Assembly: GCF_964204645.1 (NCBI RefSeq)
Contig: NC_134025.1
Span: 18,823,101-18,887,100, forward strand
Direction: 5' to 3'
DNA length: 64,000 nt
DNA from: Tubulanus polymorphus
Lineage: Eukaryota > Animalia > Nemertea
Shown: piece after piece, positions 1,521-54,704 of the stretch
Numbering within the stretch: position 1 is the stretch's first letter
Layout: each line of letters begins with the position of its first letter
Position numbers and translations under genes: made by a program
Notes under the pieces: generated by a model
Database searches by the model: none
What the model was told of the DNA's origin: nothing
The model's input: the letters and a program-made list of their open reading frames with translations, nothing else

Positions 1521-1895
1521 AGTAATAGGGATAATAGGCTTTCATACCAAAGGTCGAAAGGTCGAGCTCGTAAAAAAATGAAAATAACAATAATTTACAG
1601 TTGAATTAGTCGCGCACACTCCTAATTCAACTGTAAATTATTATTATTTTCACTTTTTACTCACTCGCCCCTTCAACCTTTGATATGAAAGCCTATTATC
1701 CCTATTACTCTTAAAATATTCATATATATGAATAAAATATAAATGAATAACATATATAAGTAACGAGTAATTAACGAGCTCTTATAGAATAGATATAAAA
1801 GTATATATTTACAACATTATTTCAATATTTATATTTGTGTGAGTTAGATTTTTAAACATTAAAAGTGTTAGTAAAGTGTGATTGAAATAATGCAT
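1521..1895 (+). repeat. Left TIR of E1; 1521-1709 is an imperfect palindrome (hairpin)
   Basis: Reverse complement of 17649-18023, one substitution seen; AGTAATAGGGATAATAGGCTTTCATA (1521) pairs with TATGAAAGCCTATTATCCCTATTACT (ends 1709). Confidence 0.95.
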
Positions 1896-1949
1896 GATAT
1901 AAATCATCGAACTTCTAAAAACAATTTAAAAAAAAAATTTAGTATTAAA

Positions 1950-4900
1950 ATGGAAGCAAATAAGTACTACTGTCCAACATGTAATATCAATATAGATAAA
2001 TCCCAAAAAGCAAGACACAATAAAACTAAAACACATTTAGAGAATAAATTGAAACTAGAATATAACGATGATATATTAGAAACTAAATTAGATGAATTAA
2101 AGAATGAAAAAGAAACATACAAATGTGATACATGTAATCAATCATTCACTGATAAAAGATATTATAATGAACATTTAAAATCTAAAAGTCATATTAGAAA
2201 TATGAATAATGATATTTTAGGTGAAGATTATTTTGATAAAGATAATGATAAGAAACAGAAGACAACTAAAAGCATAAAAAATAAATTAAACAATAAAAGA
2301 CCATACATGGAAGATGTAAGAAAATATATTAATTCATTAGATAATAAAAAAGATATAGAGATAACCGAAGCATTTAAAAGTGATATTGGTCCAGCAGCTA
2401 TCGAGTTTAAATTTCATAAAGGAAAAACATTAGAAGAAAATAAAAAACATTTAGAAAATATGAAAAATATCAATATCAAAAATAATTACTGATGTCCTGT
2501 TACTGATATCCTAAAATAAGTATATCAGTTAAAGTAAAGTTTATAAAATCTGAAGATAAACCAATATATAATATAAATTCTCATTCACAACATATTATAT
2601 CTAAACAACATATAGATGATAAATTAGATAAATGTTATAATGAAGTAAAAACTAAAATAGAAGAGAAATATTTTGAAGGATCTGGTTTAATATTTGATGA
2701 AATAATATTTATGACTTTACATGTTTATAACACAAAATATAATAAGTTAACTAAATCGAAACCAATTGATGAAAATAATGTATCATATTATAAAGAACCA
2801 GATATTGAAGCATCGAGTTATATCAAACTACCATTTAAAACTAATGCTGTAATAAATGTACAAAATGAAGATGATAAATGTTTTCTATGGGCTATAATAA
2901 GTTGTTTACATCCAACAGAAGATATTACACATAGTTTTAGATTAACTCATTATAAACCATTTGAAAATAATTATAAGATAGATAAGTATCCTGTTAGAAT
3001 TAAAAACATCCCAAAAATAGAAAGAGATAATAATTTAAGAATAAATGTATTTGATTTAATCAAATTACCAAATACAAAAGGTAACAATATAAAACATTAT
3101 ACATTAGAACCTTTATATCTATCAAAAGATTATGATTCAAACGATGTTATAGATATATTATATTATGAGAATCATTATATGTGGATTAAACAAATAGATT
3201 TATTCTTTAGAACAGAAAGTGATCACCATAATAAAATATATCTATGTAGAAAATGTTTACATAGATTCAGTAATGAAAGTACATTATTAAATCATAAACA
3301 ATTATGTGAAAATCATGATTATTGTAAATTAGTTTTACCAAATGAAAAAGATAAAATATTAGAATTCAAAAAATGTGATTACAAAAATAAAGTACCATTT
3401 GTTATATATGGAGATTTTGAATCATTAAATAAAGAATTAACTGATCAAGATAGAAAAGAAATATATTATAAAAGAAAGAAATTAAATTCTAATGAAAATG
3501 ATTTTTCAGATGAACCACCAAAAACAAATACTATCAAAAAGATTCATCAATCAGCTGCGGCTTTCGGGTTATATATTAAATCTGATTATCCAGAACTAAT
3601 TGAAAGTGAATATTATGATTATAGAAATGAAAATGTTATCAATCATTTTTGTGACTTATTAATTGAATATGAAATAAGATTTAGTAAATTATTGAATACA
3701 AATATAGAAATTATAATGACAGAAGAAGATAAAGAAGAATTTGAGTTTGCAGATAAATGTTATTATTGTGAAAAGATATTTAATTTTAGAGATAAAAAAG
3801 TAAGAGACCATGATCATTTGAATGGAAAGTTTAGAGGCGCCGCGCATGAGAATTGTAACTTACAAGCTAAGAAAATTAATTTTGTACCAGTTATATTTCA
3901 TAATCTATCAGGATATGATGCACATTTATTCATCAAACAGTTATGCCATAAAATAGAAGAAATCAATAATGAAATAGAAAGATTAAATTCAAATAGATCA
4001 AAAGATAAAATACCAACTTATAAATTTAGAATGTTAGCTAAAACATCTGAGAATTATATATCATTCCAATTTGGTTGCCTAAGATTTATAGATTCATATA
4101 GATTTTTAAATAGTTCATTAGATAACTTATCAAAATCATTAGTTGATGATGAATTAAAAATATTAAAGCAACACTATCCAAATAATGATGATTTTCAATT
4201 AATGAGATATATAGGAGCAATTCCATATTCTTTCTATAAAAATCATAATGATTTTAACATAACTGAATTATTAACAGAACAATTTTATGATGAATTAAAA
4301 AATGAATATGTTAAAGATGAAGTATATAACAGAACATTGAATATTTGGAATCATTTCAAAATAGAAAATCATGGGCAATTAGTAGATTTATATCTAAAAT
4401 CAGATGTATTATTATTAACCGATATATTCGGAAGGTTTAGAGATGTAAACCTAAAATATTTTAATATTGATCCTTGTCATTGTTATTCATCACCAGGTTT
4501 AACATGGGATTGTGGATTAAAATTTACAGATATAAAAATGGATTTCTTAACAAATATAGATCAATTACTATTATTTGAAAAATCTATAAGAGGAGGAGTT
4601 TCAGGTGTATTAGGTGATAGATATTTCAATGTAAATGATAACCCTTGATATAAGTTATTATATATAGATGCAAATAATTTGTATGGTTGGGCAATGATGG
4701 AACCACAACCTTATGGAGTATTTGAATTAACTGAAGTTTTACAGAATGAAAATAATGATAAATTTGATTGGAAGAAAAGAATTCTAGATATTGCAGATGA
4801 TTCAGATTCTGGTTACTTCTTTGTTGTAGATTTAGAATATCCTGAACATATTAAATTTAAATCTAGAAATCTAGCATACTGTCCCGAACATAAAACCGTT

Positions 4901-6001
4901 ACTCATGAAGAATTATCAAATTATCAAAAAAGAATTAAACCCGAAAATCTTATTCATACAGAAAAGTTAATGGTAACTCAAGAAGATAAATATAATTATG
5001 TAGTACATTATAGAATGTTAAAGTTTTATTTGAATCAAGGAATGATTCTAAAAAAAGTACATAGATATATTTCATTCAGCCTATCTAAGTGGTTAGAAAA
5101 ATATATAGATTTTACCACCAAACAGAGAACTGAAGCTAAAACTGATTTCGAAAAAGATTTCTTCAAGTTAATGAATAATGCATTCTATGGTAAGACTTGT
5201 GAAAATATTAGAAATAGAAATGATATTGAGTTAGTTAGTAATGGTAAAAGAATTAGACATTTACAATCATATCCTAAGTTCATTGGTAACAGAATATTTG
5301 ATGAAAATTTAGCTGCAGTTAAGATGAGAAGAACATTTATGAAATTTAATAAACCAATCTATGTTGGCGCATCAGTTTTAGAATTATCAAAATTACTAAT
5401 GTATGAATTCTATTATAATGTATTACAACCACTTTTTGTAGAAAAACATATAGAAATATTATATTTTGATACAGATTCTTACATATTAAAGATAAAAACT
5501 GATAACATAACTAATGATTTAAAAACATTAAAACATCATTTTGATTTCAGTAACTATCCTAAAAATCATGAATTATTTAGCAATGATAATAAAAAAGTTA
5601 CAGGGAAGTTTAAGGATGAATTAGGTGGTGAAGATATGATAGAGTTCATTGGTATTAGATCTAAAATGTATTCATATAAAACTAAAGAACATGAATCTAA
5701 AAAGTTAAATGGAATAACCAAAAATGTAGTAGAAAAGAATATTCATTTCAAAGATTACATCAATTGTATATTCAATGAAGAAGTTAGAAAACATAAGATG
5801 AGATGTTTAAGATCTGAAGATCATGAAATGTTTATTGAAGAAATTGAAAAGATAAGTCTAAACCCATTTGATGATAAAAGATATATTTTAGATGATAGAA
5901 TTCATACAGTTGCTTATGGATGTAATTTAGATGAATACTTAAAATTTAAAAGAGAAGAAACAAAAGGGAACGAGATAATGAAAAGAATTCTAACGTGTTA
6001 A
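1950..6001 (+). pseudogene. polB: Protein-primed-type family B DNA polymerase (N-terminal C2H2 fingers, putative OTU-like protease region, exonuclease with endonuclease VII/HNH-like insert); frameshift near 2470-2510 and stop near 4646
   Basis: Motifs IYGDFES, FHNLSGYDAH, FIDSYRF, YIDANNLYGWAM, KLMNNAFYGK, YFDTDS; colinear with E2 gene, which has GGA where E1 has TGA. Confidence 0.92.
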
Positions 6002-6030
6002 TCAAATTTTAATAAAAATATGTATTATAA

Positions 6031-6384
6031 ATGGAGAGTAAACAAGCAAACAGTGAGAACAACAAATTATTTCTAGATAGAATTAAAGATATCACAAATG
6101 TAAAATCTGTAGATTATAAATTCAAAAAGTTAACAGAATTAACAATTCATAAGAAATATCTAATTACAAATATTGATACAGTTACTAATAACTATGGAGA
6201 TAAATTAGTTATACACTTAGTATGTGAAGGATTAAAAGGAAATACATATAAATTCAGAACATATTTACCGGATAGATTTCATAGATTATCAAGTGAAGAC
6301 TTAGAAGAATTATGTTCTGGAGATTTCTATTTCGTATACAAAGGTAAGAATGAAAAAGGGCATCATGAAATAGATTTCGAATAA
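6031..6384 (+). CDS. Conserved 117-aa protein, possibly ssDNA-binding (uncertain)
   Basis: Intact ORF conserved in E2 (54363); FKKLTEL..YG..LPDRF..VYKG pattern; TAAATG start; function is inference. Confidence 0.6.
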   Translation: MESKQANSENNKLFLDRIKDITNVKSVDYKFKKLTELTIHKKYLITNIDTVTNNYGDKLVIHLVCEGLKGNTYKFRTYLPDRFHRLSSEDLEELCSGDFYFVYKGKNEKGHHEIDFE

Positions 6385-6398
6385 AATATGTAAAATAA

Positions 6399-7146
6399 AT
6401 GGTAGAATTAAAAGAATACAGAATATTTGTTGATTCTAGAATGCTTACAAATTATAAATCTCATAATTTACTAGTACAATTAGATAGAGAATTCAAGAAT
6501 TGTGTTGATTTAAAATTAGTTAATATAAGTTTATGTAATTCTTTTTATAATATATCGGATAAAACTATTGATCATAATGCTTTTATGATTCATATTAGAA
6601 ATGTAAATAAATGGTTTCACCTAATTTTAAAACCAGGATTATATAATTTAGAAACATTAGCTCAAGAAATTAATAGAAGAGCACGGTTGAAAATTAGAAG
6701 TGAAGATAAATCTTTAATTAGATTTTTAAAAAGTGATAGCACAAATAAAATTAAAATAAAGGTATATGATATATGGTATAGTGAGAAAACCTATAACTAA
6801 ACTGTTAGGAATTGTACCAGATACCGTTACAGGAAACGTAGATGGTAATTCAAATATAGTACCTTTTACACACTTTTATATTTATTGCAATTTAATCGAG
6901 CCTACAAAAACTTTCGAAGCAACTAAAGAAACAATTTGTAGTTCTAGTATACTTAATATTTTACCGCTGAAAAATGTTAAACAATTTGGAACTCAAATAA
7001 ATTATAATTTAACTGAATGTGATTTTAAACCTTGCATTCCTAAATTTGATAATTTCAAATTAGAAATAAGAAATCATAATGGACATTTAATTGATTTGAA
7101 TAACTTTCCTGTAATTTATGAATTAGTTATAAGATGTAAAGAGTAA
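6399..7146 (+). pseudogene. Probable minor capsid (penton) protein, frameshifted near 6765
   Basis: Two ORFs (6399-6800, 6766-7146) match the single 253-aa ORF of E2; SFYNI..PGLYN and YIYCNLI..LEIRN..LIDLNN patterns resemble Polinton/PLV pentons. Confidence 0.65.
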
Positions 7147-7162
7147 TTTTTTCACTATATAA

Positions 7163-7519
7163 ATGAATATAACTGTTGGGCCGAGTATATGTTTTGGGTT
7201 TGATTTTAAACGTGAGAAAGAAATGAAATTTAACATTAATGATGTAATTACACATATTAAAAATATTGCATTTTCTAATGAAACAACATTTGAGTATGAA
7301 ACAACAATAGATAAAGAAACTTTAATTGTAGAAAAGATTACTAATTTAATTAGAGAATCTTTAAGATTTCATGAATTAGATGAAGATTTTATTATAGATG
7401 ATATTAAAAAAATAATAATTGAAATATATACAAATGAAACTAGTAATGAAATAAATGTTGAATTAATCATAAATAAGTTAACTAAATATTTTGATGATAG
7501 TAATTTTTTTGATAAATAA
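7163..7519 (+). CDS. Hypothetical 118-aa protein
   Basis: Homolog at 55499; TAAATG start. Confidence 0.7.
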   Translation: MNITVGPSICFGFDFKREKEMKFNINDVITHIKNIAFSNETTFEYETTIDKETLIVEKITNLIRESLRFHELDEDFIIDDIKKIIIEIYTNETSNEINVELIINKLTKYFDDSNFFDK

Positions 7520-7741
7520 ATGAGTGATAATAAGTGGATAATAACTGGATTATATAATGGCGCATTACTATCAGTTGGAACTGTTGGTTATTCAATGGTA
7601 TTAAAAAAAGTATTTAAAATGGGAAGTGTTAATGTTGATAGATTTGATATCAATGATATTTTAAAATTAACATTAGCAGTTACTTTATCTAATTTAACTA
7701 TTGATTATTTAGAAAAACAAAAATATATTCCTCCCATATAA
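7520..7741 (+). CDS. Small hydrophobic 73-aa protein
   Basis: Identical protein at 55841; two hydrophobic stretches; TAAATG start. Confidence 0.75.
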   Translation: MSDNKWIITGLYNGALLSVGTVGYSMVLKKVFKMGSVNVDRFDINDILKLTLAVTLSNLTIDYLEKQKYIPPI

Positions 7742-7765
7742 ATGCATCATTATTTTACTAAATAA

Positions 7766-8188
7766 ATGGCTTCTGCAGTTATAACTATTATAGGATCAGC
7801 AATTGTTAACGCTTTAGCATTTACTGGTGGTGGTTATTTATTTAAGCATATTGATAAAAATGGTTCATTAACAGAACAAAGAAGACATAACTTAGCATTA
7901 GAGAAATATAATAAAGCAGCAGAAGAATATAGAGAAAAGAGGCAAAACTATATGGATTGTATTAACAAAGAATTATATGATCAGAAGATTTCACATAGAG
8001 ATTTTCAATCAGTTGATGATGCAATGAGTTTATATAACGCGGTAACCAATAAAGAAAAATTACATCTATACAAACCTAAATTATCAGATTATTATACCCC
8101 AAGTAATGAACAGAAGAAATATGAAATAATATGGATTTTAGGCGGAACAGTTATTGTTATATTTGTTGCTTATAAGTTTACTAATTAG
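7766..8188 (+). CDS. 140-aa membrane protein (hydrophobic N- and C-termini, central helix)
   Basis: Homolog at 56087; TAAATG start. Confidence 0.75.
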   Translation: MASAVITIIGSAIVNALAFTGGGYLFKHIDKNGSLTEQRRHNLALEKYNKAAEEYREKRQNYMDCINKELYDQKISHRDFQSVDDAMSLYNAVTNKEKLHLYKPKLSDYYTPSNEQKKYEIIWILGGTVIVIFVAYKFTN

Positions 8189-8208
8189 TAATTTTTTTTG
8201 CTAAATAA

Positions 8209-8642
8209 ATGGAAGATAAAGTTGATAATATTGATATTATTCCTCATGATATAAATAAAACTAAATTAAAAATATATTTAGAAAAACAAATATTAGAATT
8301 TGAAAGTGACTTAAAGATAAAAAAGAAAAAATATTCAAAATCTAAAATTATATATAATTTGATTATAAGTGGTTCGGTTACAATTAGTTCTGTAATAACA
8401 TTTCTAGCAATATTCAGTCCATTAACACCTTTAGCTATATCAATTGGTGTATTAGGATTAAGTTCAAGTGTTTTAACTGGTATAAGTTCAAAATTAAATA
8501 TAAAAAGTAATAAAGAAAAAATTAAAACTAATATAAAGAAATTAATAAATTAAAGAATACACTAGATTATATAATAAGTTCAAATGGTCATATAACAGTT
8601 GAAGAACAAGATAAATTATTAAAAGAATTAGTTGATTATTAA
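8209..8642 (+). pseudogene. Two-TM membrane protein, frameshifted near 8538
   Basis: Matches intact 144-aa ORF 56529-56963; 1-bp loss in E1. Confidence 0.7.
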
Positions 8643-8658
8643 TTTTTTAGTTATATAA

Positions 8659-10043
8659 ATGGCAGATAGTTTTCCAAAAGCTTTCCAATATAATAAATCA
8701 ATTAAATATAATATTCCAGCAATAGATTTTAATAAAGATATTACATATAGAAATGAAGTTTTAAATTCATTAATTGATTGATATATTTATGTTACTGAAA
8801 GTAATAATTTTCATGTTAAGATGGAAAATATATTTCATGTGTATACAATTAATTTCAAAAATTTAAATGAGGCAAAACAATGGTTATTAAAATCTAATAT
8901 GAAGTATTGGCAGAACCAATTAAATTTTGCTGTTTATTGTGCAACAACAGGATGTGGAATTAGTTGGAATGATCATTTAAACAAACCAAGTTTACCATTG
9001 ATGTTATCACTTTTTAGATTTCATACATATTTTCAAATAAAATTAATATTAGATGAATTAGAATGTCCTTTACCAGGTTCAAAATATTTTAAAGAATTGA
9101 ATAATAATATTAATTTTTCTAAGTTTTATAAAATATGTAATGAATTTAATATTAATTCAAATAAAGATTTTACAGCAAAAATTGGAACAATGGGTGGATT
9201 AGTAATATTATATACTAAAGAATTTGGAAAAATAATGACAAATTCAGATATAAGAACACTAAATTGGAATGAATTACCAAAATATTATAATAATATACAA
9301 CAACAAAACACTAATGGTTGGGTTAATTTCATTTTAGAAAATAGTGAAGGTTTTGCTAAAGCTGGAATACAAAGAATAAATCACTCTATTAGAACTTATT
9401 TGATATGTATTTTAGGTGCGCAAGTTGAAACAAGATCCCCAATAATTGGAAATGATAACACTTCATTCGATGCGCAGAAACAATTCAAAGTATTATTTGA
9501 AGATTCCATTCATAATGATAAAAATAGATCTATTCCAGAAAACATTGTAAGATATCAAAATTATTTAGATGAATCACATATTAGATTAAATTATTGTATA
9601 GGCCCTAATCTATTTATTATTTCTAATGCTTTAGTATTAAAGATGGGAAACATGATTGGTTACAATAATCTAATTAAACTGCAACAATAAATAATTCATT
9701 TGGATTAAATGATATAAATAGAAAGATTATCACTGCTCCAAAATTAATGGAAGGTGAAAAAAATAAAAAACACATTCAATCAACAGAAACTAAAACTAAG
9801 AATATTAAATTAAATAATGATTCTAAAATAAAAGATTACAATACATCAATGCACTCGACAGAAAAAAAAGAAGAACCAATTCCTAATATTGATTTAAACA
9901 AATATTCACCATTTAAAAATCCAAATTTAAATCCTAATGATGTTGATCCAGAAACCGATGAAGACTTTGCAAATCGATTAGATAAATTAAGATCTTCAAC
10001 ACCCGAAACATCGAGAAGAGACACTCTTAGTGAATATGATTAA
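8659..10043 (+). pseudogene. Conserved protein of unknown function (YWQNQLNFAVYCATTGCG), disrupted and joined to a different 3' end after ~9848
   Basis: Matches 464-aa ORF 56981-58375; early stop near 8778, frameshift near 9677. Confidence 0.75.
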
Positions 10044-10073
10044 AAATAAATAATTATTTTTTTTGTTAAATAA

Positions 10074-11321
10074 ATGAGTGGGAGTTATATCAATCCTTCT
10101 AAGAATCATAGAATATCTAATGCTATTAAAGCAGAAAGATCACATCATATAATTACTCATAATCCTTCAAATATTAATCCCGATGAAACTTTATATGTTA
10201 GAATCCCTAGATTAACACAAAATACTTTTTACGTTCCAAATAGTATTTATTTATCAGCCGATATAAAAGTAACCCGTAATAATAATAATTATGTTGTTGA
10301 TAATGTTGGAAGATATTTGATTAAAAAATTAACTATAAAGATTGGTCCAGAAACAGTTTTCTCATTAGATGATTATAATTTATTTATGCATTATAAAGAT
10401 TTATGGTTAACTAAAGAAAATAGAAATAATATGATATTCCAAGGCATCCAATCAGAAAACCAAAATAAATTAAGATCAGAAGCTAATAGCGCAATATTAA
10501 CTAATGCTGTAGATAAATTGATAAAAAGTATATATGGAAGCAAATATAAAATTCCATTAGACTTTGAATTGATAAATGACAACGCACCTTTACATAAATA
10601 CGCAATTCAAGAAGACGTTATATTCGAAATAACATTTGCTCCTGTAAATGAAATTGTAATATCTAGCGTTAATAAAGATATGCGTTATAAATTATCGAAT
10701 ATATGTTTAGAATATGATACAGTAACTGATGAAAATATTTCAAGTATAATTCAAACTAAATACAATCAAGGATTTTCATTATTATATGATTATATTGATA
10801 AATTTAAAACTGTAACTATTAATGCAAATGATGAAATAATTGATGAGAATATTAACTTCCCAAGAAGATCTATTAAAGGTATATTAATATTTTTTACCAT
10901 TGCAACATATACTAATGGCGCAATAAATGTTGATAATTATTATAATCCTGAAATAACAAAAGTAGAAATAACTATCGAAGGAATAGCAAATAAGATATTT
11001 TGTCAAGGAATGAGAATGATTGATCAATGGCCAGAAATTAGAAAACATTTTATGAATGAAAAAGTGAAATCATCTGAAAATTGTAACATTAATCAAATTG
11101 ATTATTATACCGGTAACAAATATGCATTATGGTTAGATTTTAGAACAAGAGAGGATAATTCATTACATGGTTCTGGAAAAAAACTACAGAACACTAAAGA
11201 TGGAATACAATTATTCATGACAAAGAATAAAGGAATCAAAAATTTCAAAATGCACATTTATATTATATCTGACGCGCAATTGAATATTGTAAATTCACAA
11301 TTAGATAGTGTTATGTATTAA
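10074..11321 (+). CDS. Probable major capsid protein (double jelly-roll), 415 aa, intact
   Basis: Size, beta-rich pattern (NPSNI..LYVRIP, YKIPLDFEL, FEITFAP, LSNICLEYD), strong conservation with 59967-61214, context; fold is inferred. Confidence 0.75.
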   Translation: MSGSYINPSKNHRISNAIKAERSHHIITHNPSNINPDETLYVRIPRLTQNTFYVPNSIYLSADIKVTRNNNNYVVDNVGRYLIKKLTIKIGPETVFSLDDYNLFMHYKDLWLTKENRNNMIFQGIQSENQNKLRSEANSAILTNAVDKLIKSIYGSKYKIPLDFELINDNAPLHKYAIQEDVIFEITFAPVNEIVISSVNKDMRYKLSNICLEYDTVTDENISSIIQTKYNQGFSLLYDYIDKFKTVTINANDEIIDENINFPRRSIKGILIFFTIATYTNGAINVDNYYNPEITKVEITIEGIANKIFCQGMRMIDQWPEIRKHFMNEKVKSSENCNINQIDYYTGNKYALWLDFRTREDNSLHGSGKKLQNTKDGIQLFMTKNKGIKNFKMHIYIISDAQLNIVNSQLDSVMY

Positions 11322-11353
11322 AATTTTAACTCTAATAAAAATTTATTATATAA

Positions 11354-12301
11354 ATGGAAGGAGGTAAAGTATATAAACATATTCCATACATCGATACACA
11401 TGAAAATAATGATGGTTTATATTATGTAATACCTTGTAATATAGCTTTGATATTTGATCCTATTTTCAAAATTTATAAAACTAAACTAATAGAAATCGAT
11501 AATAATAAAAGTGGTGTTGTTGATAATTTAAGTAATGTAATTGATAATAATGTAATATCTTCTACATCTAATAATGTAATACCTACTACATCTAATAATG
11601 TAATACCTACTACATCTAATAATGTAATACCTTCTACATCTAATAATGTAATACCTTCTACATCTAATAATGTAATACCTTCTACATCTAATAATGAAAT
11701 ATTATTAAATGTTAGTGAAAATAGAAATTATTGTGATTATTGTAAAGGCGAATTTTCAAACGCTCCATCAAATTGGAATAATCATATGAATACAAATTCA
11801 CATATTACTAATGTTATAAAACGTGTTGGTTTAAAAGAATTTATAGAACACCCATTTAGATATGTTACAAAGTTTGTTTCAAATCAAAAAGTAAATGGTG
11901 AAAAAATATATGAAGATTTATTATTAGCAACACCTAATAAAGATGAATTAGATCTAACCAATGCTAATGAAATATTAGGATCAAACACTGTAAATGAAAT
12001 ATTAGGAGCAAACACTAATAAAGATAATAATGAAAATACAGGAAAGCGCATTGATAATAAAGATTCTATGAAACTTAAATCAGAAAATAAAGATATAGTT
12101 GAGATGACTAATAAGTATATCAATAAACCAATTATTTATGAAGATACGGTTAAAAGGGTGAAGAATAAGTACAAAAATAATAAAGAATTTGAAGAAGAAA
12201 ATTCGGTAGAGAATTTGAATAGATTGTTAGGGTCTGATGATGAATTGGAGAGTGATTCAGAAAGTGATTCAGAAAGTGATCATCTAACACTCAAACAGTA
12301 A
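11354..12301 (+). CDS. Variable zinc-finger protein with 6x NNVIP(S/T)TS repeat and acidic tail
   Basis: CDYC..HMNTNSH finger; open 315-aa ORF; TAAATG start. Confidence 0.7.
   Translation: MEGGKVYKHIPYIDTHENNDGLYYVIPCNIALIFDPIFKIYKTKLIEIDNNKSGVVDNLSNVIDNNVISSTSNNVIPTTSNNVIPTTSNNVIPSTSNNVIPSTSNNVIPSTSNNEILLNVSENRNYCDYCKGEFSNAPSNWNNHMNTNSHITNVIKRVGLKEFIEHPFRYVTKFVSNQKVNGEKIYEDLLLATPNKDELDLTNANEILGSNTVNEILGANTNKDNNENTGKRIDNKDSMKLKSENKDIVEMTNKYINKPIIYEDTVKRVKNKYKNNKEFEEENSVENLNRLLGSDDELESDSESDSESDHLTLKQ
11545..11688 (+). repeat. In-frame 24-bp tandem repeat x6
   Basis: TAATAATGTAATACCT(T/A)CTACATC units. Confidence 0.95.
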
Positions 12302-12304
12302 TAA

Positions 12305-12655
12305 AGGTTGAAAATTGTATAAAATAATAGTAAATAAAAAAGGGGGTTTTAAGTATTAAGGTATCTAATACATATCTAATACGTATCTAATACGTATCTA
12401 ATACGTATTTAATACATATTATTTGAAAATACCTTAAATTATATTTCTTTTTCAAATTTATATTGAAACCTCAGTAATAATGAATAATCTTTATTATTTT
12501 CAAACTTATTCATATATTAGTTGAAAAAAATAAAAATAAATTGGTTGAAAATTGTATGAATAATATTTATTTTAAAAAAGGGGGTTTTAAGTACTAATGT
12601 ATTTAATACGTATTAAATACGTATTAAATACGTATTAGATACATAGGTATACAAA
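12305..12655. repeat. Structured intergenic region between convergent gene arms of E1
   Basis: Two direct copies of GGTTGAAAATTGTAT..AAAAAAGGGGGTTTTAAGTA, each followed by 11-bp quasi-palindromic GTAT(C/T)(T/A)AATAC units. Confidence 0.85.
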
Positions 12656-12658
12656 TAG

Positions 12659-13270
12659 TTATTTTATAAATTTATATTCATATGGAAATTGTAATCTCAG
12701 TAATAATTTTGAACCTTTATTATTCTTTAATTTATTCATATATTCATCATGTAATTCAGTAGGTATAATTTGATTTTCTTCTAATGATTGTTGCATAGAT
12801 TTGTTATCTTTGTTATAAGATAAAACTAGAAATCTTATATTCTCCCTAAAGTCTTTAACAATTGAATTATATTTTTGTTTTAAAACCCATGTTGTTATCC
12901 CAAAATGTCTTCCAGAGAAAGCTAAATAACATAACTCACTTTCTCTAACTTTTGAATCATGTAAATTTGCGCAATCATCTATAATGAATAATGTAATTGA
13001 TCCTTTATAAGTATCAATTGCTATTTTAATACAATTATCTAAATTTTCTTTTACTGTTTTAGGATTTAATATAATAAACTTTTTTATCCTAACTATATCT
13101 CTATTATATGTTTTATTCATTTCATAAGTAGGACAAAATAATATTATGTTATCAAAATGATTCTTATAAATAGTTTCTAACAAATCTAATATGAAATTTG
13201 TTTGACCACAATTGGTTACTCCAGTTATTAACATATTATGCGGTTCGAATATGAATAAATCTTTATTCAT
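12659..13270 (-). CDS. A32/FtsK-like packaging ATPase; Walker A lysine replaced by Q
   Basis: ITGVTNCGQT (E2 has GKT), Walker B FIIDD, SGRHFGIT arginine motif. Confidence 0.85.
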   Translation of the reverse strand: MNKDLFIFEPHNMLITGVTNCGQTNFILDLLETIYKNHFDNIILFCPTYEMNKTYNRDIVRIKKFIILNPKTVKENLDNCIKIAIDTYKGSITLFIIDDCANLHDSKVRESELCYLAFSGRHFGITTWVLKQKYNSIVKDFRENIRFLVLSYNKDNKSMQQSLEENQIIPTELHDEYMNKLKNNKGSKLLLRLQFPYEYKFIK

Positions 13271-14381
13271 TTATTCTTTTAATTTTACTAGATAAAATCC
13301 ATTCATTAAACTTATCATCATATCCTTTATATTTCACCAAAGAATACTTTTTTCCTTTAAGAGTTTTTGTTTTCAATACTTTTTCTATTTTGTATTCTAT
13401 TTCATCTGGATTTGGTACAAGTGATAATTCTTGTTCATAGAAATAACCTAATATTTCTTCATCTTTTAGATCTTCTAGTTTATAAACAAATGGTTTAGTT
13501 AATATTATCTTTTTAATCTTAAATATTTCTTCTGTAAAATTAGGGGTATAACCTTTATAAAATGTTTTTCTACATTTAGATATTCTGACGTGTTGTCCAA
13601 TTTTGAATCTAGGTTCACCGAAATCATGTGTAACAAATGCTCCATATAAATTATTCCAAACAATTTCCGAATTATCTTCTTTTCTAGCTTGTATAGGTTT
13701 CATATTTATAGAACTATGTTTAGAATTATTATAACCTTTCACTAAATCATCTAATACATCGATATATTTATATGTTTCATTAGCAGTAAAATATTTCCAC
13801 ATTCTAGTTTTCAATGTTTTATTAAATCTTTCTATAATAGATGCTTTTTTATCTGAATGTGTTGAAAAATAATCTACATCGTTATCAGATAATAGTTTTT
13901 TAAAATGTTTGTTATAGAATTCCTTACCTTCATCAAATTGTATCTTATCTGGAATAGCTTCTTTAAATATTGATTTAAAAGCATTTGTTACTTCTATTCC
14001 AGTTTTATTTTTGATTGGAATTGACCATGCGTATGGACTGAATATGTCTATAACATTTAATATCCAGAAATATCCTTTGTTGTATTCCTCTAAGTTCTTC
14101 ATGTCAATTAAATCTGCTTGCCATTGTTGATCGATATATGAAACCATAACTTTTCTTGTTAAATAAGTTTTATCCATTTTCTTGTGTATTTGATATGTTG
14201 GTTGATTTTGTAACCATGATTTTAATTCACTATATTTTATACCACCATGTGGGTGCCGTACGGCACCATCACCATTTTGATTATCAGATTTAATTTTATT
14301 CCATAATTCTGAAACGTTAGAATATGATACTTCACTTTCTGGGTTATAATATAAATCTCTTAAATATTGTTCTTTTTTCAT
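13263..14381 (-). CDS. int: Retroviral-like DDE integrase with C-terminal chromodomain
   Basis: WQADLIDM, VIDIFS, QFDEGKEF, IERFNKTLK; YKIEKVLK..LVKYKGYDDKFNEWI. Confidence 0.93.
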   Translation of the reverse strand: MKKEQYLRDLYYNPESEVSYSNVSELWNKIKSDNQNGDGAVRHPHGGIKYSELKSWLQNQPTYQIHKKMDKTYLTRKVMVSYIDQQWQADLIDMKNLEEYNKGYFWILNVIDIFSPYAWSIPIKNKTGIEVTNAFKSIFKEAIPDKIQFDEGKEFYNKHFKKLLSDNDVDYFSTHSDKKASIIERFNKTLKTRMWKYFTANETYKYIDVLDDLVKGYNNSKHSSINMKPIQARKEDNSEIVWNNLYGAFVTHDFGEPRFKIGQHVRISKCRKTFYKGYTPNFTEEIFKIKKIILTKPFVYKLEDLKDEEILGYFYEQELSLVPNPDEIEYKIEKVLKTKTLKGKKYSLVKYKGYDDKFNEWILSSKIKRINE

Positions 14382-14388
14382 CTTATTT

Positions 14389-14745
14389 TAATCCATTAAT
14401 AATAATTTAGATTTAGTTTCAATGGCTTTATGATTTGACTTATTTTCTTGTATAATAGGTTTATTGTCATTGGAATCATCTTTATCATTAGATTTGAATT
14501 TTGATTTATACATTACACCGGATAATATAATAACTGTTACTAATCCAATTGTAATATATAATTTATAATTACTTCCAGCATTAGAAGAATCAGATGGATT
14601 ATTATTTGAATCAATATCAGGTGATTCATTTATATCAGTTAATTTCTTTTTCTTAGCTTTTTTTAATTCTGAAGATCTTTTACCTAATTCTCTTGCCCAT
14701 TTAATTTGTTACTCGGATCTAGCCTTTTTCTTAACGCTATCATTC
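14389..14745 (-). pseudogene. Small basic single-TM protein, internal stop
   Basis: Manual reading gives WARELGKRSSELKKAKKKK..LYITIGLVTVIILSGVMY; homolog in relic near 39535-39890. Confidence 0.5.
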
Positions 14746-15345
14746 ACTTTTAGTTAATTTTTGTTCTGATTCATTTTCTGTTCCACCGTTTGGTTGTAGT
14801 ACAGCGTCATCTGTTTCGTTCTTACCTGATTTATATTCCATAGGTTTGATATTCGAAAATGTTATGACACCAGTAGAAATTAATGTCATAACCGATCCTA
14901 ATTGGAATGAAGCATATCCAACCCATTTTTGTAATTCAGTCATAACTAAATAGTCATTTTTCAAATCACTATATCATTTATTTTCATCATCAATTGGTAT
15001 TAACTGGTAACATAACTTAGAGTAACATTTGACAATACCATCTGAAATAGAATCATTTATTCTAGCTAATCTTGCCTCTTCATAAATCTTAAAATATTTT
15101 ATTACTTTATCTGGTTTCATAGCATCTAATTCTTGGAAAGTAATGATTCTATTTAAAAACTCCTTAGTTTTTCCACCGGCAATCAATAGTTCTAGATGAT
15201 GCTTACAATATAAATAGTATTCATAATCTATATTTCAATTAACTTGAGCACAATTAGTTACAACTGTATCTTTATTATCACTTATACCCAAATCATCTAA
15301 TGTTTTTTCAATATCAATACTATTCTTATTAGATTTCTTTGACAT
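14740..15345 (-). pseudogene. Conserved ~200-aa protein with hydrophobic C-terminal part, disrupted
   Basis: ORFs 14974-15186 and 14740-14964 are continuous in relic ORF 39131-39541; TAAATG start at 15345. Confidence 0.65.
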
Positions 15346-15673
15346 TTATATTAGAGAAAAAAAGCAAAAAAATATTATAAGTATTCTTCAAATGATACTA
15401 GCTAGTTAAAACTAAAGAATTCTAGTATTGACTACTGATACTAGCTATTTGAATTTAAAGAATTTCTATTTGAATCTATTCAAAATATAAAGTATTCTTT
15501 TTTGAAAAGAAAATATTAAAAATATAATAGAATTCACTAGCTAGTTGAAGTTATTGTTTTTTTATTATATTTTATTTAAATTCTATTTGATATCACCATG
15601 TGGGTGCCGTACGGCACCATCTCACTACTATTGTCTATCTATTAGGAGCAGTAATTATAACTGTCCAGATAAG

Positions 15674-16354
15674 TCATTTCGGATCCTTGATATCAAATTC
15701 CTCAACGTATTGTTCATTATTTGGATCATTGTTCCATTGATCAATAAATTTCTTTGCCTTTGTTAACTGTTCTAAATATAACTGTAAATCTAGTTTATTA
15801 GATTTGATTTGATTTTCTTTCTTTTCTAAAGGCCTTAAATTTTTCCAACCCCAAATAAGTTTTTTATTGTATTCATCATTCATGTTAAATTTAGATATTG
15901 GTAACACGTGATCAATATGGTAATAATCCCCATAATTATCTATATTCATTTTATCATCGAATTTAAATATAATCCATGATTTGAGAAATTCATCTGAACA
16001 ACCGAATAGATTAGATAGTGTTTCTGAATGTGTTTCTTTGTTGAATAATTGTGTTAATCTAGATCTTAAGCATAGTTTCAATCTAAAATTAAGATCTGTT
16101 TGATATCTTTCTCTCATATATTCTGTCATATAATCATTATAAGCTTCTCTATTATCTTCTCGATATTGTTTGGTATATAGTTTAAAACAAGTTTTACAAC
16201 AATATTGAAAACCATCTTTGCTAATCTTACGCTTACTAAATTCTGTTAAAGCTAATTTATCTAATTCACATTTAGAACACTTCTTGTAGTATATATTTAT
16301 AACACCAGCAGTGTTATTTGTAATATTGATAATTTGCGGTTGTTCTGGTTCCAT
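15674..16354 (-). CDS. HNH endonuclease with N-terminal Cys4 zinc finger
   Basis: CSKC..FSKRKISKDGFQYCCKTC; NYGDYYHIDHVLPIS..NLRPL..ENQIKSNK. Confidence 0.8.
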   Translation of the reverse strand: MEPEQPQIINITNNTAGVINIYYKKCSKCELDKLALTEFSKRKISKDGFQYCCKTCFKLYTKQYREDNREAYNDYMTEYMRERYQTDLNFRLKLCLRSRLTQLFNKETHSETLSNLFGCSDEFLKSWIIFKFDDKMNIDNYGDYYHIDHVLPISKFNMNDEYNKKLIWGWKNLRPLEKKENQIKSNKLDLQLYLEQLTKAKKFIDQWNNDPNNEQYVEEFDIKDPK

Positions 16355-16489
16355 TTATTATATGTATTTTTTTACTAAATTGGTTAATATTTTAGAATCC
16401 TCTTCCATTTCTTCGACCAACGTCATCCTTTTTCATTCCTCGCTGCTTTTGATAAGTTGTTTCGATTCCTTGATATCTGAATAATACCA

Positions 16490-16950
16490 CTGGGCAAAAG
16501 CGCGCATTCATGCGCGCTTTTGCTTAATGCGCATGCGTTAATCATAATTATATATTCATTATGTAAATTCTGTAAAATAGAAACAACCGAACACAGAAAA
16601 TATCAAAACGTGTTCGCATTAGGCAAAACCGCGCATTCATGCGCGGTTTTGCTCAATGCGCATGCGTTAATCATAATTATATATTCATTATGTAAATTCT
16701 GTAAAATAGAAACAACCGACATGAAATATCTAAACGTGTTCGCATTAGGCAAACCGCGCATTCATGCGCGGTTTTGTTCAATGTACATGCGTTAATCATA
16801 ATTATATATTCATTATGTAAATAGAAACAACCGACATGAAATATCTAAATCATACCACTGAGCAAAACCGCGCATTCGTGCGCGGTTTTGCTCAATGCGC
16901 ATGCGCTAATCCTAATTATATATTCATTCTGAATAGAAACGACCGAACAT
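16490..16950. repeat. Four ~113-129 bp tandem units, each with a ~30-bp GC-rich palindrome
   Basis: GCAAAACCGCGCATTCATGCGCGGTTTTGC-type cores at 16494, 16623, 16749, 16862. Confidence 0.92.
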
Positions 16951-17648
16951 AAAAATTCGCCAACCAGATTTACACAATACATTATACAAGTTGTTCGGCT
17001 TTTTCTTCCAATACAATTTATAATTACAAACATTTTTTCAATTGCTGGTAAATATTTAACTACATCAACAAATGTTAAACTTAATCATTGGAGTCTTAAT
17101 GTTTTTGAAATTCTTATATAGTTTCTTCGTCGATCTTTTGGCGATTCTTGTGTTTCTTGTGCTAATTTCTATTGGTTCGATATCCATTGCTGTTGATTCC
17201 TCAGTCAGAAAGAGTATCTTGAGTTTCTCTATCTCTTCTTGATGCGTATGGCGTTTTATTAATCTAAAAGATATTAGCGGCAACTCTAGCCATCTAAAAG
17301 ATATACTAAATACACTTAAATATATCTAAAGGTTTCATATTTAATAGCCCTAATAACTACAAAAAACAGTACTTACATTTAGATTTAGAATTGTAAACTA
17401 TAAACTCCTAATTTCGTTTCGAGAGATAGAATATCCTGAGCGTAATGTTACAGCGCCTGTTCATTTCCTGCCACGTCATCTGGTTCCGGTTCTAGAGTGT
17501 TCTACACGTTTGCAATATTATGACTCATATGTTTCGGCGTCATAGTAACAGCTGTAACAGCTGTGAATTTATAGATTTATTCAATAGTTCATTACATGAA
17601 ATGTATATAGGCTCAAATAGAATCATGTTCTAGTATAAATAAACAGCT

Positions 17649-18023
17649 ATGCATTATTTCAATCACACTTTACTAACACTTTTAATGTTTAAAAATCTAA
17701 CTCACACAAATATAAATATTGAAATAATGTTGTAAATATATACTTTTATATCTATTCTATAAGAGCTCGTTAATTACTCGTTACTTATATATGTTATTCA
17801 TTTATATTTTATTCATATATATGAATATTTTAAGAGTAATAGGGATAATAGGCTTTCATATCAAAGGTTGAAGGGGCGAGTGAGTAAAAAATGAAAATAA
17901 TAATAATTTACAGTTGAATTAGGAGTGTGCGCGACTAATTCAACTGTAAATTATTGTTATTTTCATTTTTTTACGAGCTCGACCTTTCGACCTTTGGTAT
18001 GAAAGCCTATTATCCCTATTACT
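17649..18023 (-). repeat. Right TIR of E1; hairpin at 17835-18023
   Basis: Reverse complement of 1521-1895, followed by TSD AACCAG. Confidence 0.95.
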
Positions 18024-18619
18024 AACCAGTCTTTCCCGCGGAATTTTCCATTGGATTAAAACAAGGGCCGTCCAATTTTGACGGTATAGAGAGTATGGCG
18101 GTATATATCGTGGGTATTTTACTATGTATTTGTAAAGAGATGTACATTGTTCACAATTTAAATTGTTCATCAAATTTGGCAAATATCTGCTCAGGGTAAA
18201 GAAACGTTCTGTTAATTCTGCTGTTCGCGGTAATCTGGGACAGTTCCCTCTACTTATAATTTTCTTGCCACTTATGGTCAAATAGTGGCTGCGCATTCTG
18301 TAAAATAGACAGTTCGACGATGGGTTAAATTCCCTAAAATCCAAATTCCTCAAAGTAGGTAAAAATCCCCCTCCTTCTGAATGTAGTTTAAGTAGATACA
18401 ATCTTAAGGTCAATTAATTCATAATTATGATACATATATCTAATTTATTATTGCGAAACATCTTAAGGATATCATGATCATACAAACTTTGAATTAAAAC
18501 ATACTACAAATTAACACAGCTTAATGAAAGGGTTCATCGCACATTTCAAATGTATTACACTAGCTTGAATCTTAAATATCTAGAATAAAAAGTTCATTAT
18601 TGCTTATAAATTCATGGCA

Positions 18620-38126: not shown

Positions 38127-39034
38127 GGGGTCATTCGTTTATTACGTACGCACGGTAAAGGTAGGGTTAATTCTTCAGAAGAGTGACAGATTCGTACAGT
38201 AGGTAGGTGTAGCTAATATCGTAAAGAGTATGTACGCAACAGTTAGTACGTTTTTAAAGAAAATAAATTATTTGTTCATCAAACCACCTTTGTGTTTTTG
38301 CCGCAGTTGTTTTAAAATTTTTCTTTTGATCCGTACATCATTTTAGAAATTTGGTCAAGAGTCGCATGAATGGGTTTATTCAAGCGGGTCTCACTGATTT
38401 AATTCACGTAACCCTCTCAAACCCTGGGATTGAGAGGATGTTCACGGAAATGAAACCGGGAATCGTGTCAAAAGAATCAAGTTGAAGCCTTGACCTCCGT
38501 ATTACAACTGATTATATATTTTATTCTACACTAAAAAAATGCATCATTTAATTAACCGCATGCGCTGGGGGATGGAGACGTGGATGACACCGGGTTATCT
38601 AGTGTTTGCGTTAAAGGATTGAATTACCCAGAGAGTTGAAGCAATAGATTATTAGTGGAATTTAACCTAAAAAGTTGTTATTTGAGTAAAGTTGGCTGTG
38701 TCGTCGACAAATCGTGAATCCAGCGGAAGTTAATAAAAGAGGCCGACATTTCATGATTTTAACGATGTTTTATTGAATATTTTCATTCCATTTGGTTTCA
38801 TATTCATAACTCTTTCTTAATAACCCTTCCATCTTCCTAGCACTGAAACGAGAGGAATAACAACACACACAGTGACAGTTCGGCGACAGACAATTGCGGT
38901 ACGCATATTTCTATTAATTTCAATTAAAAGCGTACGCAGGATAGGAGCATTGTGATAATTTGTGACAGGTGTGCACGGGCGTGGACCTCATTAAAAACGG
39001 CAAATTTTTGCGTACGTAATAAATGAATGACCCC
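38127..39034. mobile_element. Non-autonomous TIR element (MITE), PIF/Harbinger-like
   Basis: 26-bp TIR GGGGTCATTC(G/A)TTTATTACGTACGCA, 3-bp TSD CAT at 38124 and 39035. Confidence 0.8.
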
Positions 39035-40099
39035 CATTGTAACTCAACGAAATGGAGTAGGCCCTAGCATTCCTTGATACTCCCCGGTTTGAACCTAATT
39101 ATTTCCTGACCAGACACGTGGAAAAAGAAAATGATGAGAACCCAGCAATCAATTTTTCGAATTCTGCCGAATGATGATGAATTAGATAACATGAAACCAG
39201 ATAAAGTAATAAAACATTTCAAAATATATGAAGAAGCTAGATTAGCTAGGATAAATGACTCTATTAGTGATGGAATAGTTAAATGTTACTCTAAGTTATG
39301 TTACCGAGTAATACCAATTGATGATGAAAATAAATTATATAGTGATTTAAAAAATGACTATTTAGTTATGACAGAATTACAGAAATGGGTTGGATACGCT
39401 TCATTCCAATTAGGTGGAATAATGACATTAATTTCTACTGGCGTAATAACATTTTCTAACATTAAACCTATAGAATACAAAGATAAAAATAAATCAGAAG
39501 ATATTGAATCCGAACAAAAATTAACTAAAATAAATGAGTGATGATTTTAAGAAGAAGCCTAGATCCGAAAAAAAATTAAATGGGCAGGGAATTAGGTAAG
39601 ATCTTCTGAGTTAAAAAAAGCTAAGAAAAAGAAATTAACTGATATAAATGAACCACAGAAATTATCTGTTATTAATTCGAATGATAATCCATCTAATGCT
39701 TCTAATGCTGGAAGTAATAATAAATTATATATTACAATTGGATTAGTAACAGTTATTATATTCTCCGGTGTAATGTATAAATATAAGTATAAATCTGATG
39801 ATAATGATGGTTATAAACCTATTATACCAGAAAATAAGTCAAATGATAAAATCATTGAAACTAAATCTAAATTATTATTAATGGATTCAAATAAGATGAA
39901 AAAAGAACAATATTTAAGAGATTTATATTATAACCCAGAGAGTGAAGTATCATATTCTAGTGTTTCAGAATTATGGGATAAAATTAATTCTGATAAAGAA
40001 AATATAAAATATAGTGAATTAAGATTATGGTTACAAAACCAACCCACATATCAAATCCACAAGAAAATGGATAAAAATTATCTAACAAGAAAAGTTAAT

Positions 40100-50016: not shown

Positions 50017-50222
50017 AGTAATAGGAGTTTAGTTGTTTCATACCAAAGGTCGAAAGGTCGAGCCCGAGAAATTTTCCAAATGTTAAAATAACAATAATTT
50101 CTACTTGAATTAGTCGCGTACACTCCTAATTCAAGTAGAAATTATTATTATTTTAACATTTGGAAAATTTATCAACCTCAACCTTTCGACCTTTGATATG
50201 AAACAACTAAACCCCTATTACT
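50017..50222 (+). repeat. Terminal imperfect hairpin of E2 (206 nt)
   Basis: AGTAATAGGAGTTTAGTTGTTTCATA pairs with TATGAAACAACTAAACCCCTATTACT. Confidence 0.93.
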
Positions 50223-50304
50223 CTTAAAATATTCATATATATATGAATAACATTTAAATCATTGAACTTCTAAAATCAATTTTAATAAAAAATTTAGTAT
50301 TAAA

Positions 50305-54334: not shown

Positions 54335-54362
54335 TCAATTTCAATAAAAATTTGTATAATAA

Positions 54363-54704
54363 ATGGAGAGTAAACAAGTACACAGTGAATTCTTAGATAG
54401 AATTAAAGATACTTCAAGCGTCAAATCTGTAGATTATAAATTTAAAAAACTAACTGAGTTAACAATTCACAAGAAATATTTAATTACAAATATTGTTACA
54501 GTTACTAATAAATATGGAGATAAATTAGTAATTCATTTAGAATATGAAGGATTAAAAGGAAATAAATATAAATTCAGAACTTATTTACCAGATAGATTTC
54601 ATAGATTATCAAGTGAAGATCTAGAAGAATTATGTTCTGGAGATTTCTATTTCGTATACAAAGGTAAGAATGAAAAAGGGCACCATGAAATAGATTTCGA
54701 ATGA
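54363..54704 (+). CDS. Conserved 113-aa protein, possibly ssDNA-binding (uncertain)
   Basis: Homolog of 6031-6384. Confidence 0.6.
   Translation: MESKQVHSEFLDRIKDTSSVKSVDYKFKKLTELTIHKKYLITNIVTVTNKYGDKLVIHLEYEGLKGNKYKFRTYLPDRFHRLSSEDLEELCSGDFYFVYKGKNEKGHHEIDFE

Follow-up and report, generated by a model that had tools for sequence, protein, structure and literature searches.

The Maverick/Polinton element and its copies

The window analysed here is the whole 64,000-nucleotide (nt) stretch of the nemertean Tubulanus polymorphus (contig NC_134025.1, positions 18,823,101 to 18,887,100), and it contains an integrated Maverick/Polinton, E1, in which almost every gene is introduced by a two-part start signal. 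This signal consists of an A/T tract at a fixed place followed by TAAATG over the start codon; it comes in two forms, is restricted to one clade of related elements and has a twin in a pox-like viral contig. E1 occupies 1521-18023 on the plus strand (about 16.5 kb) and ends in 375-nt terminal inverted repeats with arms that are 100% identical. Identical 6-mers flank both ends (1515-1520 and 18024-18029), forming a 6-bp target-site duplication. The element encodes a protein-primed PolB (PF03175, 6.8e-16 for the sister copy; Pfam) and an integrase whose rve match just misses the cut-off (1.1e-7; 32.5 bits, cut-off 32.6; Pfam), together with the Maverick/Polinton virion genes for a double-jelly-roll capsid, a penton and an A32-like ATPase. 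The open reading frames (ORFs) scanned gave no Pfam, PHROG or PDB match to an adenovirus-type (adenain) maturation protease, with three conserved families staying unnamed. Four genes are interrupted in E1, namely PolB, penton, 8659 and 15345.

A second copy, E2, lies at 50017-64000 on the plus strand and runs past the window end; the two copies are about 90-99% alike. An inverted fragment of the integrase region, E3, lies near 39000-42000 and is split near 40100-41016 by unrelated DNA bearing 186-nt inverted repeats. The DNA between the copies is occupied by long-terminal-repeat retrotransposon genes and microsatellites. Reads of the element family were drawn from run X7, of which about 12 in 100 were read. 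There, 27,928 reads match 5900-11500 at a depth of about 130-1150, and just 688 of them do so at 99% or more. With so few near-identical reads at this depth, the family must comprise many diverged copies. Among the 40 best-supported differences between E1 and the reads over the same interval, E1 has G or C and the reads A or T in 28, with the reverse in 4, as if the E1 copy were drifting from the AT-richness of its family.

A two-part start signal in two forms

With positions counted from the T of TAAAT, TAAATG covers 12 of the 14 gene starts of E1, as against 26 of 363 other sense ATGs (p 1.5e-11); the exceptions are PolB (TAAAATG) and the integrase, which has none. TTTT or AAAA fills -13 to -10 at 11 of the 12 TAAATG starts (six T, five A) and at only 2 of 42 internal TAAATG sites (p 9e-9). 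In E2 the same holds for 11 of 11 TAAATG starts and 1 of 32 internal sites. Likewise, 12 of 13 E1 starts have an A/T tract that is free of a TA step over -12/-11, versus 5 of 42 internal sites. When a run of A's followed by T's was fitted to -15 to -8 and the best-fitting junction scored, the junction fell at -16 to -14 in seven E1 starts (the T form) and at -10/-9 in six (the A form), with seven and five in E2. None of 14 in E1/E2 lies at -13 to -11, leaving a clean gap between the forms.

The initial annotation had described two promoter classes, T-rich and A-rich, and had held that the class is kept in E2 although spacer bases change. The strings that it quoted upstream of 7163, 10074, 15345 (minus), 16354 (minus) and PolB were found in place, and the other starts that it listed have the T- or A-rich character claimed for them. 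The form is indeed identical in 11 of 11 E1/E2 gene pairs, with ungapped differences at 0 of 66 positions in the initiator, 9 of 77 in the core, 14 of 88 in the spacer and 106 of 275 farther upstream, although copies so much alike make this agreement a weak test.

Reads from run X7 over 5985-6425 cover two A-form promoters. Thirty-eight substitution rows reach 18%, and 35 of these fall in the coding part of gene 6031; the remaining ones comprise one in the 6031 spacer and two just past the penton start. At this threshold (at least 18%), none falls in the A-runs 6014-6018 and 6383-6386. In about a quarter of the reads, the 6031 spacer is longer by one letter and one letter is lost at the first base of the initiator; we read these as a single variant in which a PolB-like TAAAATG keeps its distance. 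About 30% of reads gain three letters directly upstream of the penton A-run.

Genes behind the two forms

The A form precedes PolB, gene 6031, the penton, gene 11354, the ATPase and the endonuclease. The PolB promoter (1928-1952, plus) has ten A's at -19 to -10 before the TAAAATG initiator of the frame at 1950-6001 (plus). At gene 6031 (promoter 6013-6033, plus; product of 117 amino acids, aa), TAAAAA is followed by a 9-nt spacer and TAAATG. A suspected resemblance of its product to a single-strand DNA-binding fold found no support, and searches of protein families and structures gave no function for it or for the families of 15345, 58392 and 8659. The penton promoter lies at 6381-6401 (plus); the gene is in two frames in E1 (6399-7146) and whole in E2 (54720-55481), and the penton fold was confirmed on the latter, the copy of E1 6399, with an AlphaFold predicted local distance difference test score (pLDDT) of 94 and a Foldseek match to the mavirus penton at E 5.3e-11. 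Gene 11354 (promoter 11336-11356, plus) again has TAAAAA with a 9-nt spacer and encodes 315 aa with a Cys/His cluster; a 24-nt tandem repeat of about seven copies lies within it at 11521-11736. On the minus strand, the packaging ATPase promoter (13268-13288; gene 12659-13270; Pox_A32 2e-11) lies inside the coding end of the integrase, and the endonuclease VII/HNH promoter (16352-16373; gene 15674-16354; PHROG endonuclease VII 1e-15) has TAAAAA with an 11-nt spacer. The A-form starts of E2 are 50305, 54363, 54720, 61247 and 63237 (minus).

The T form precedes the capsid gene and genes 7163, 7520, 7766, 8209, 8659, 58392 and 15345. The major capsid protein (MCP) promoter (10056-10076, plus) has eight T's before the gene at 10074-11321. 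Its product is a double jelly roll (pLDDT 86.6) with Foldseek matches to the capsids of PBCV-1, iridovirus and mavirus; the structural matches to mavirus have only about 11-14% identity. The other plus-strand promoters of this form in E1 are those of gene 7163 (7145-7165, six T's at 7147-7152; 118 aa), gene 7520 (7502-7522, seven T's at 7504-7510; conserved, 73 aa), gene 7766 (7748-7768, weak in E1, with eight T's in E2), gene 8209 (8191-8211, eight T's; a two-helix, membrane-like product) and gene 8659 (8641-8661, six T's; conserved, about 440 aa, whole in E2 at 56981). Gene 7766, a start overlooked by the initial annotation, encodes a conserved 140-aa product with two membrane-like helices. 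Gene 15345 (promoter 15343-15363, minus, seven T's) encodes a conserved protein of about 210 aa. Gene 58392 of E2 (promoter 58374-58394, plus, seven T's), with a conserved coiled-coil product, has a start that is absent from E1. The T-form starts of E2 are 55499, 55841, 56087, 56529, 56981, 58392 and 59967. Of the T-form proteins, 4 of 8 have membrane-like helices, and of the A-form proteins 0 of 6 (p 0.07), a count in which the 58392 family scores by the copy in a close relative (L003) and not by that in E2.

The integrase with its chromodomain (13263-14381, minus) has neither form. Its start in E3 (near 39897) lies one base past the stop of the upstream gene, and the integrases of L001, L003 and L031, three relatives introduced below, do carry TAAATG. 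Position 14700 was discarded as a gene start, since it opens a six-codon frame and the E3 copy of the gene starts elsewhere.

Apart from the genes, several structured regions were seen. The outer 190 nt or so of each terminal repeat (1521-1709 and 17835-18023; E2 50017-50222) folds into a near-perfect hairpin (-65 kcal/mol, z -19.5), and the hairpins of E1 and E2 differ on both arms with pairing and orientation kept, which hints at hairpin-type ends instead of plain protein-primed ends. The terminal repeat of E1 also matches the poxvirus early consensus at about 1574, but this match was set aside, as E2 is without it. Between the convergent genes 11354 and ATPase, 12300-12660 holds two alike blocks of about 115 nt with an A-run/G-run and short tandem units, its E2 counterpart (62265-62680) is an 87% inverted repeat, and the region is a possible terminator or origin. 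From the endonuclease gene to the right terminal repeat, 16480-16930 holds about four tandem units of about 115 nt, each with a GC-rich palindrome.

Relatives of the element

A capsid alignment search gave 80 of 199 metagenome loci and three genome contigs, and capsid searches of IMG/VR gave no relatives. A quick, midpoint-rooted capsid tree was made from the 67 loci whose capsid frame has at least 300 aa. A branch with full support (100 in the Shimodaira-Hasegawa-like approximate likelihood ratio test, SH-aLRT) parts it into 24 rows, 20 of them loci with TAAATG, and 43 rows, none of which has it. The four exceptions inside the clade (L014, L015, L052, L053) were excluded from promoter counts. 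The trait is kept in loci of 56-60% AT (L007, L008). It is also present in a far element of the clade, L031, whose PolB (8189-12253, minus) is only 27% identical over 138 aa to that of E2; because the two polymerases can barely be aligned, the promoter type follows the capsid module across polymerase types.

The TAAATG loci were grouped by hand before the tree was made. The close group comprises L001 and L003-L005 (capsid 70-76%), with L002 left out as a near-copy of L001; the middle group L006-L013, L028 and L068, together with L072 and L078, which are at just 33-36%; and the far group L031, L048, L050, L055, L059, L075 and L080. A tract of A/T that lacks a TA step over -12/-11 precedes 27 of 28 starts versus 10 of 46 internal sites in the close group, 26 of 35 versus 6 of 51 in the middle group, and 13 of 27 versus 5 of 40 in the far group. 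The form of the tract agrees with that in E1 in 18 of 21 close orthologs (p 0.011 by within-locus shuffles; two orthologs were assigned by position), including those of L003, where gene order is rearranged, and the penton is A-form in E1, E2 and L003 alike. The mismatches concern the HNH gene of L001 and, in L003, genes 6031 and 7163. In L003, a deoxynucleoside kinase gene (10343-10981, minus; PF01712 1.7e-31) also stands behind a T-form promoter. Mixed AAATTT cores prevail in the distant relatives. Thirteen head-to-head gene pairs have TAAATG on both sides, with spacings of 8, 8, 9, 13, 18, 18, 22, 22, 22, 23, 24, 48 and 66 nt; in the pairs 8-9 nt apart, the T's come from the opposite initiator.

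Vaccinia promoter rules and viral contigs

The yardstick for the two forms was the consensus rules for vaccinia printed in the main texts of two sources, and supplementary promoter tables could alter the comparison of spacers. As set out there, late promoters have TAAATG with a T at the tenth base upstream, and intermediate promoters have TAAA without such a T and an A-preferring stretch 15-19 bases upstream (PMC11980589). Table 1 of the other source gives the late promoter as T, nine bases and TAAATG and the intermediate promoter as TAAAAA, 14 bases and TAAA (PMC11423596). All seven T-form starts in E1 and all seven in E2 have TAAATG over the start codon and T at -10, so that, as far as sequence goes, the T form satisfies the late definition; five of seven in each copy also fit the fuller 'group I' late pattern. 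Among A-form starts, T at -10 occurs in 0 of 6 in E1 and 0 of 5 in E2, and the hexamer TAAAAA is carried by 4 of the 6 and by 3 of the 5. In the relatives, TAAAAA lies 8-11 nt before the initiator at 6 of 28 starts versus 0 of 46 internal sites in the close group and at 5 of 35 versus 0 of 51 in the middle group.

Most of the matches listed in three pattern scans of IMG/VR, each with flanks taken for 80 loci, were unrelated. The scan with the A-form pattern yielded a divergent pox-like contig (L272/L451) of 17.5 kb (17,556 bases), with Pox_A32, a pox kinase, Pox_L3, Pox_L5 and NAD ligase as markers. This single contig, which has no known link to the host, had the highest share of TAAATG starts among the 148 loci scored in two of the scans. 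Eleven of its 16 ORFs start at TAAATG, and the tract is present at 10 of these 11 versus 8 of 32 internal sites; without the A32 start, by which the pattern had selected it, the count is 9 of 10 (p 4e-4). The contig carries late-pattern T forms as well as TAAAA(A) forms at 8-11 nt, which is the spacing of the Polinton. The nearest relatives of its L3 protein are about 50% identical, four unnamed proteins among the protein-search matches, and searches with the L3 family brought back this contig alone. No poxvirus RNA polymerase subunit was found in the ORFs scanned.

TAAATG starts are also numerous in four giant-virus contigs (L129, L103, L104, L111). In L129, they begin 13 of 19 ORFs, but only 2 of the 13 have the tract, which the pox-like contig has at 9 of 10 (p 6e-4), and unselected stretches of bins G001 and G002 have TAAATG at 3 of 16 and 3 of 14 ORFs. 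The capsid of G001 best matches a grouper iridovirus capsid (E 1.6e-105), and the bin of L104 also has an iridovirus-like capsid. Head-to-head pairs 11-34 nt apart were seen in L104 and L129. Since giant-virus contigs use TAAATG too, in a looser manner and with no fixed tract, TAAATG alone is not proof of a poxvirus; the position of the tract, however, favours one. A single IMG/VR contig (2845-4539; L404-L406), which is not among the TAAATG-rich loci, has three head-to-head initiator matches with 8-nt spacing within 1.7 kb.

Discussion

Most Mavericks/Polintons of animal-like genomes are assumed to be expressed and mobilised by way of the host nucleus. Each gene of the present element with the signal has an A/T tract at -15 to -9 and a TAAATG overlapping the start codon. 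The explanation that we put forward, and whose chances we judge to be about even, is that the RNA polymerase of a pox-like helper virus reads the genes of the element, the A form serving as an intermediate-type and the T form as a late-type promoter. Its two parts can be graded separately. That the helper would be pox-like is quite probable, and given such a helper, true staging seems somewhat favoured. In infected cells, intermediate and late promoters function on naked DNA, and A/T tracts are recognised by their shape. Family searches of the scanned ORFs of E1, E2 and the relatives, among which small unnamed ORFs remain, matched no RNA polymerase; because no such gene was detected, the element would depend on that of its helper. 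Early transcription of poxviruses takes place inside the virion core (PMC11423596), so the intermediate class would be the earliest one open to a free-riding genome. A first reading at this stage would suit PolB, which may be expressed together with the ATPase, nuclease and penton, with the capsid and membrane proteins following later. The tract could be viewed as a dial. The AAATTT cores of the distant relatives would stand midway on it and may be read at both stages, and a clean polarisation into two forms is confined to the E1 sub-clade.

The initial annotation had assigned T-runs to structural genes and A-runs to replication genes, while noting that the probable penton and the ATPase fall in the A-rich class. 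The promoters of both are A-form, and with the penton fold confirmed, two of the three recognisable virion-building genes stand in the supposed replication class, so the division into structural and replication genes is wrong. The vaccinia categories suit the split somewhat better: the vaccinia A32L is an intermediate gene, and intermediate genes are mostly concerned with DNA binding and packaging, late genes with membranes and morphogenesis. The parallel with vaccinia promoters that the initial annotation drew holds in part, in that the T form satisfies the late rule and the A form carries TAAAAA, the intermediate motif; it fails in the spacing of the A form.

Several observations weigh against the proposed explanation. 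The TAAAAA of the A form lies 9-11 nt from the initiator instead of the 14 of vaccinia. A 13-nt spacer is found only at PolB of E1, with 9 nt at PolB of E2, which lacks the long A-run of E1, and none of the 28 starts in close relatives has TAAAAA at 13-15 nt. The match to the vaccinia categories is spoiled by the penton, a virion protein behind an A-form promoter, and by the vaccinia double-jelly-roll gene D13L, which is intermediate, not late. The L3 homolog of the pox-like contig has a hybrid core, although L3 is late in vaccinia. The integrase is without the signal in both E1 and E3. Junctions at -13 to -11, absent from E1/E2, occur in 8 of 28 close, 17 of 35 middle and 19 of 27 far starts. 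The idea that the form is conserved across copies thus stands for the close relatives (18 of 21), where kinship makes the p value of 0.011 overstate the independence of the loci, and falls for the distant ones, in which agreement with E1 is at chance (13 of 27 and 10 of 19). L007, L012 and L013 have an A-rich core before the MCP gene, L009 and L068 have a T-form penton, and L003 has a T-form gene 6031. As five contigs of run X1 have a seven-T run before the penton start, the form may also switch within the host. In the head-to-head pairs 22-24 nt apart, one tract at about -12 serves both genes and is T-rich to one and A-rich to the other. Finally, the proposal does not account for the route of an integrated nuclear copy to a cytoplasmic polymerase.

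An alternative is that the same pox-like helper reads all genes as one temporal class. The signal would then be a single A/T tract of about 7 bp, with A's followed by T's and no TA step, placed a helical turn ahead of the initiator and recognised by its shape whichever way it points. The choice of A or T would only tune promoter strength, with strong promoters for capsid and membrane proteins, or would reflect drift of the sub-clade. We regard this as a possible but unlikely account. In the close relatives (five loci, here with L002 included; 31 starts), the two forms have in common an A at -15 (83%) and a T at -9 (93%), the junction positions of the relatives form a continuum, and the form is not kept in distant ones. 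Of the 13 head-to-head pairs, 5 cluster at spacings of 22-24 nt, with one tract centred at about -12 for both genes, and 3 at 8-9 nt, where the opposite initiator provides the T's; the gene of the 58392 family is T-form in tandem (E2, L003) and A-form when head-to-head with MCP (L009, L010). Against a single class stand the clean gap between the forms in E1/E2 and the agreement of form in 18 of 21 close orthologs. Published work also gives TAAAAA as the core of intermediate promoters, and the intermediate and late promoters of vaccinia differ by the same preference for A or T. A helper that is a giant virus other than a poxvirus, for example an iridovirus-like one, would make the poxvirus class labels inapplicable. 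TAAATG starts and head-to-head pairs in giant-virus contigs (13 of 19 in L129; 3 of 16 and 3 of 14 in G001 and G002) and the grouper iridovirus as the nearest neighbour of the G001 capsid speak for it, and so does the metagenomic origin of the relatives, whereas poxviruses are reported from vertebrates and arthropods only (PMC6831550). Yet the giant-virus starts are looser and have no fixed tract (2 of 13 in L129 versus 9 of 10), and the highest TAAATG share belonged to the pox-like contig, so that we consider such a helper improbable.

The signal might instead be one of the host, with no helper involved, for nuclear RNA polymerase II or for translation (an A-rich start context and a short AT-rich leader); the elements are integrated and very AT-rich, and AAA is the commonest context at -3 to -1 outside the TAAATG set (46 of 333). 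What makes this very improbable is the strict T-A-A before ATG and a tract fixed within 1-2 nt in a single clade, even at 56-60% AT, together with head-to-head starts 8-9 nt apart, which leave no space for a TATA box and a leader. Moreover, TAA doubles as the stop of the upstream gene at just 1 of 12 E1 starts, which tells against a host signal and rules out stop-start coupling. A last idea, that the T-runs are terminators of the upstream genes (of the poxvirus early TTTTTNT or the polymerase III type), draws on a T-run within 4 nt of 4 of the 6 examined stops that precede a T-form start. It is largely refuted and hardly tenable, because the runs track the downstream ATG, as the initial annotation required, and not the stop: they end at -7/-8, with stops 0 to 328 nt away. 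The run of gene 7520 sits inside the coding end of gene 7163, and gene 15345 has no same-strand gene end within 328 nt upstream. Furthermore, none of eight other stops (four without a following gene, four before A-form starts) has a run of five T's within 40 nt, and TTTTTNT is present in just 4 of 7 T-form cores of E1.

Returning to the pox-like helper, a bolder version may be formulated, plausible though on balance doubtful: the integrated Maverick clade would represent virophages of pox-like viruses, the E1 sub-clade would have copied both post-replicative stages of the poxvirus, and the sliding tract would be the dial between them. An unseen pox-like virus in the host would then be implied. 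More generally, a poxvirus-type promoter across a whole clade suggests that some Polintons probably rely on a cytoplasmic helper, and TAAATG with the tract at -12 could serve as a sequence marker for such elements. If the two forms are true stages, a satellite of about 16 kb has borrowed a two-step viral cascade, and the natural gradation of cores, A-rich at one end, mixed in the middle and T-rich at the other, would show how poxvirus intermediate and late promoters interconvert. If they are not, the new link between helper and promoter would remain, and the two-class part would be mere tuning.

Comparison with known systems

Among the papers listed by literature searches, which covered few subscription papers, none described poxvirus-type promoters in Polintons. 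A word count over the accessible text of a 2026 preprint on small DNA viruses gave no use of 'promoter' or 'poxvirus'. What appears to be new, and is partly supported by the sequences compared here, is a Polinton clade with poxvirus-type post-replicative promoters that are polarised in the E1 sub-clade into late-like and intermediate-like forms. Its resemblance to vaccinia, so far as the cited texts describe that virus, lies in TAAATG over the start codon, in the T at -10 within a T-rich run (late), in a TAAAAA core without T at -10 (intermediate) and in head-to-head shared promoters (PMC3185747). Unlike in vaccinia, the TAAAAA of the A form is 9-11 and not 14 nt from the initiator and the A form retains the full TAAATG; the signals are located in an integrated element of about 16.5 kb in which a polymerase was undetected, and their timing is only a prediction.

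Sharing of promoters with a helper is known, from the portions of the literature consulted, for mavirus, whose promoters match the late motif of its helper (10.1101/068312), and for Sputnik-type virophages and transpovirons (PMC11464507, PMC11788076, PMC6401483). As in the present case, these are small integrating or satellite DNAs with the promoter motif of a large cytoplasmic virus, and the pacmanvirus transpoviron even has both early and late motifs. They differ in having protist hosts, mimivirus- or asfarvirus-like helpers and other motifs, whereas the element described here has a pox-type motif with both forms post-replicative, and its helper is only postulated. Polinton-like viruses have been found with the occlusion bodies of entomopoxviruses (Barth et al., PMC11296320), which favours the view of Polinton relatives as parasites of poxviruses; the main text of that work, as far as available, does not use 'promoter', 'transcription' or 'TAAAT'.

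With other Mavericks/Polintons and the 'adintoviruses' as portrayed in the main text of PMC8502044, E1 shares the terminal repeats, the 6-bp target duplication, the protein-primed PolB, the rve integrase, the ATPase, the double-jelly-roll capsid and the penton. A difference is that no adenain-type protease was detected in the ORFs scanned, and its sister clade is wholly without TAAATG; the word 'promoter' does not occur in the main text of that source as available. The yeast plasmids pGKL1/2, in the account given by the sections consulted of PMC6831550, offer a further parallel as protein-primed linear DNAs with a TAAAAT-type initiator and A leaders made by slippage. However, these plasmids encode an RNA polymerase and a capping enzyme themselves, and it is the early promoters of poxviruses that their upstream element resembles.

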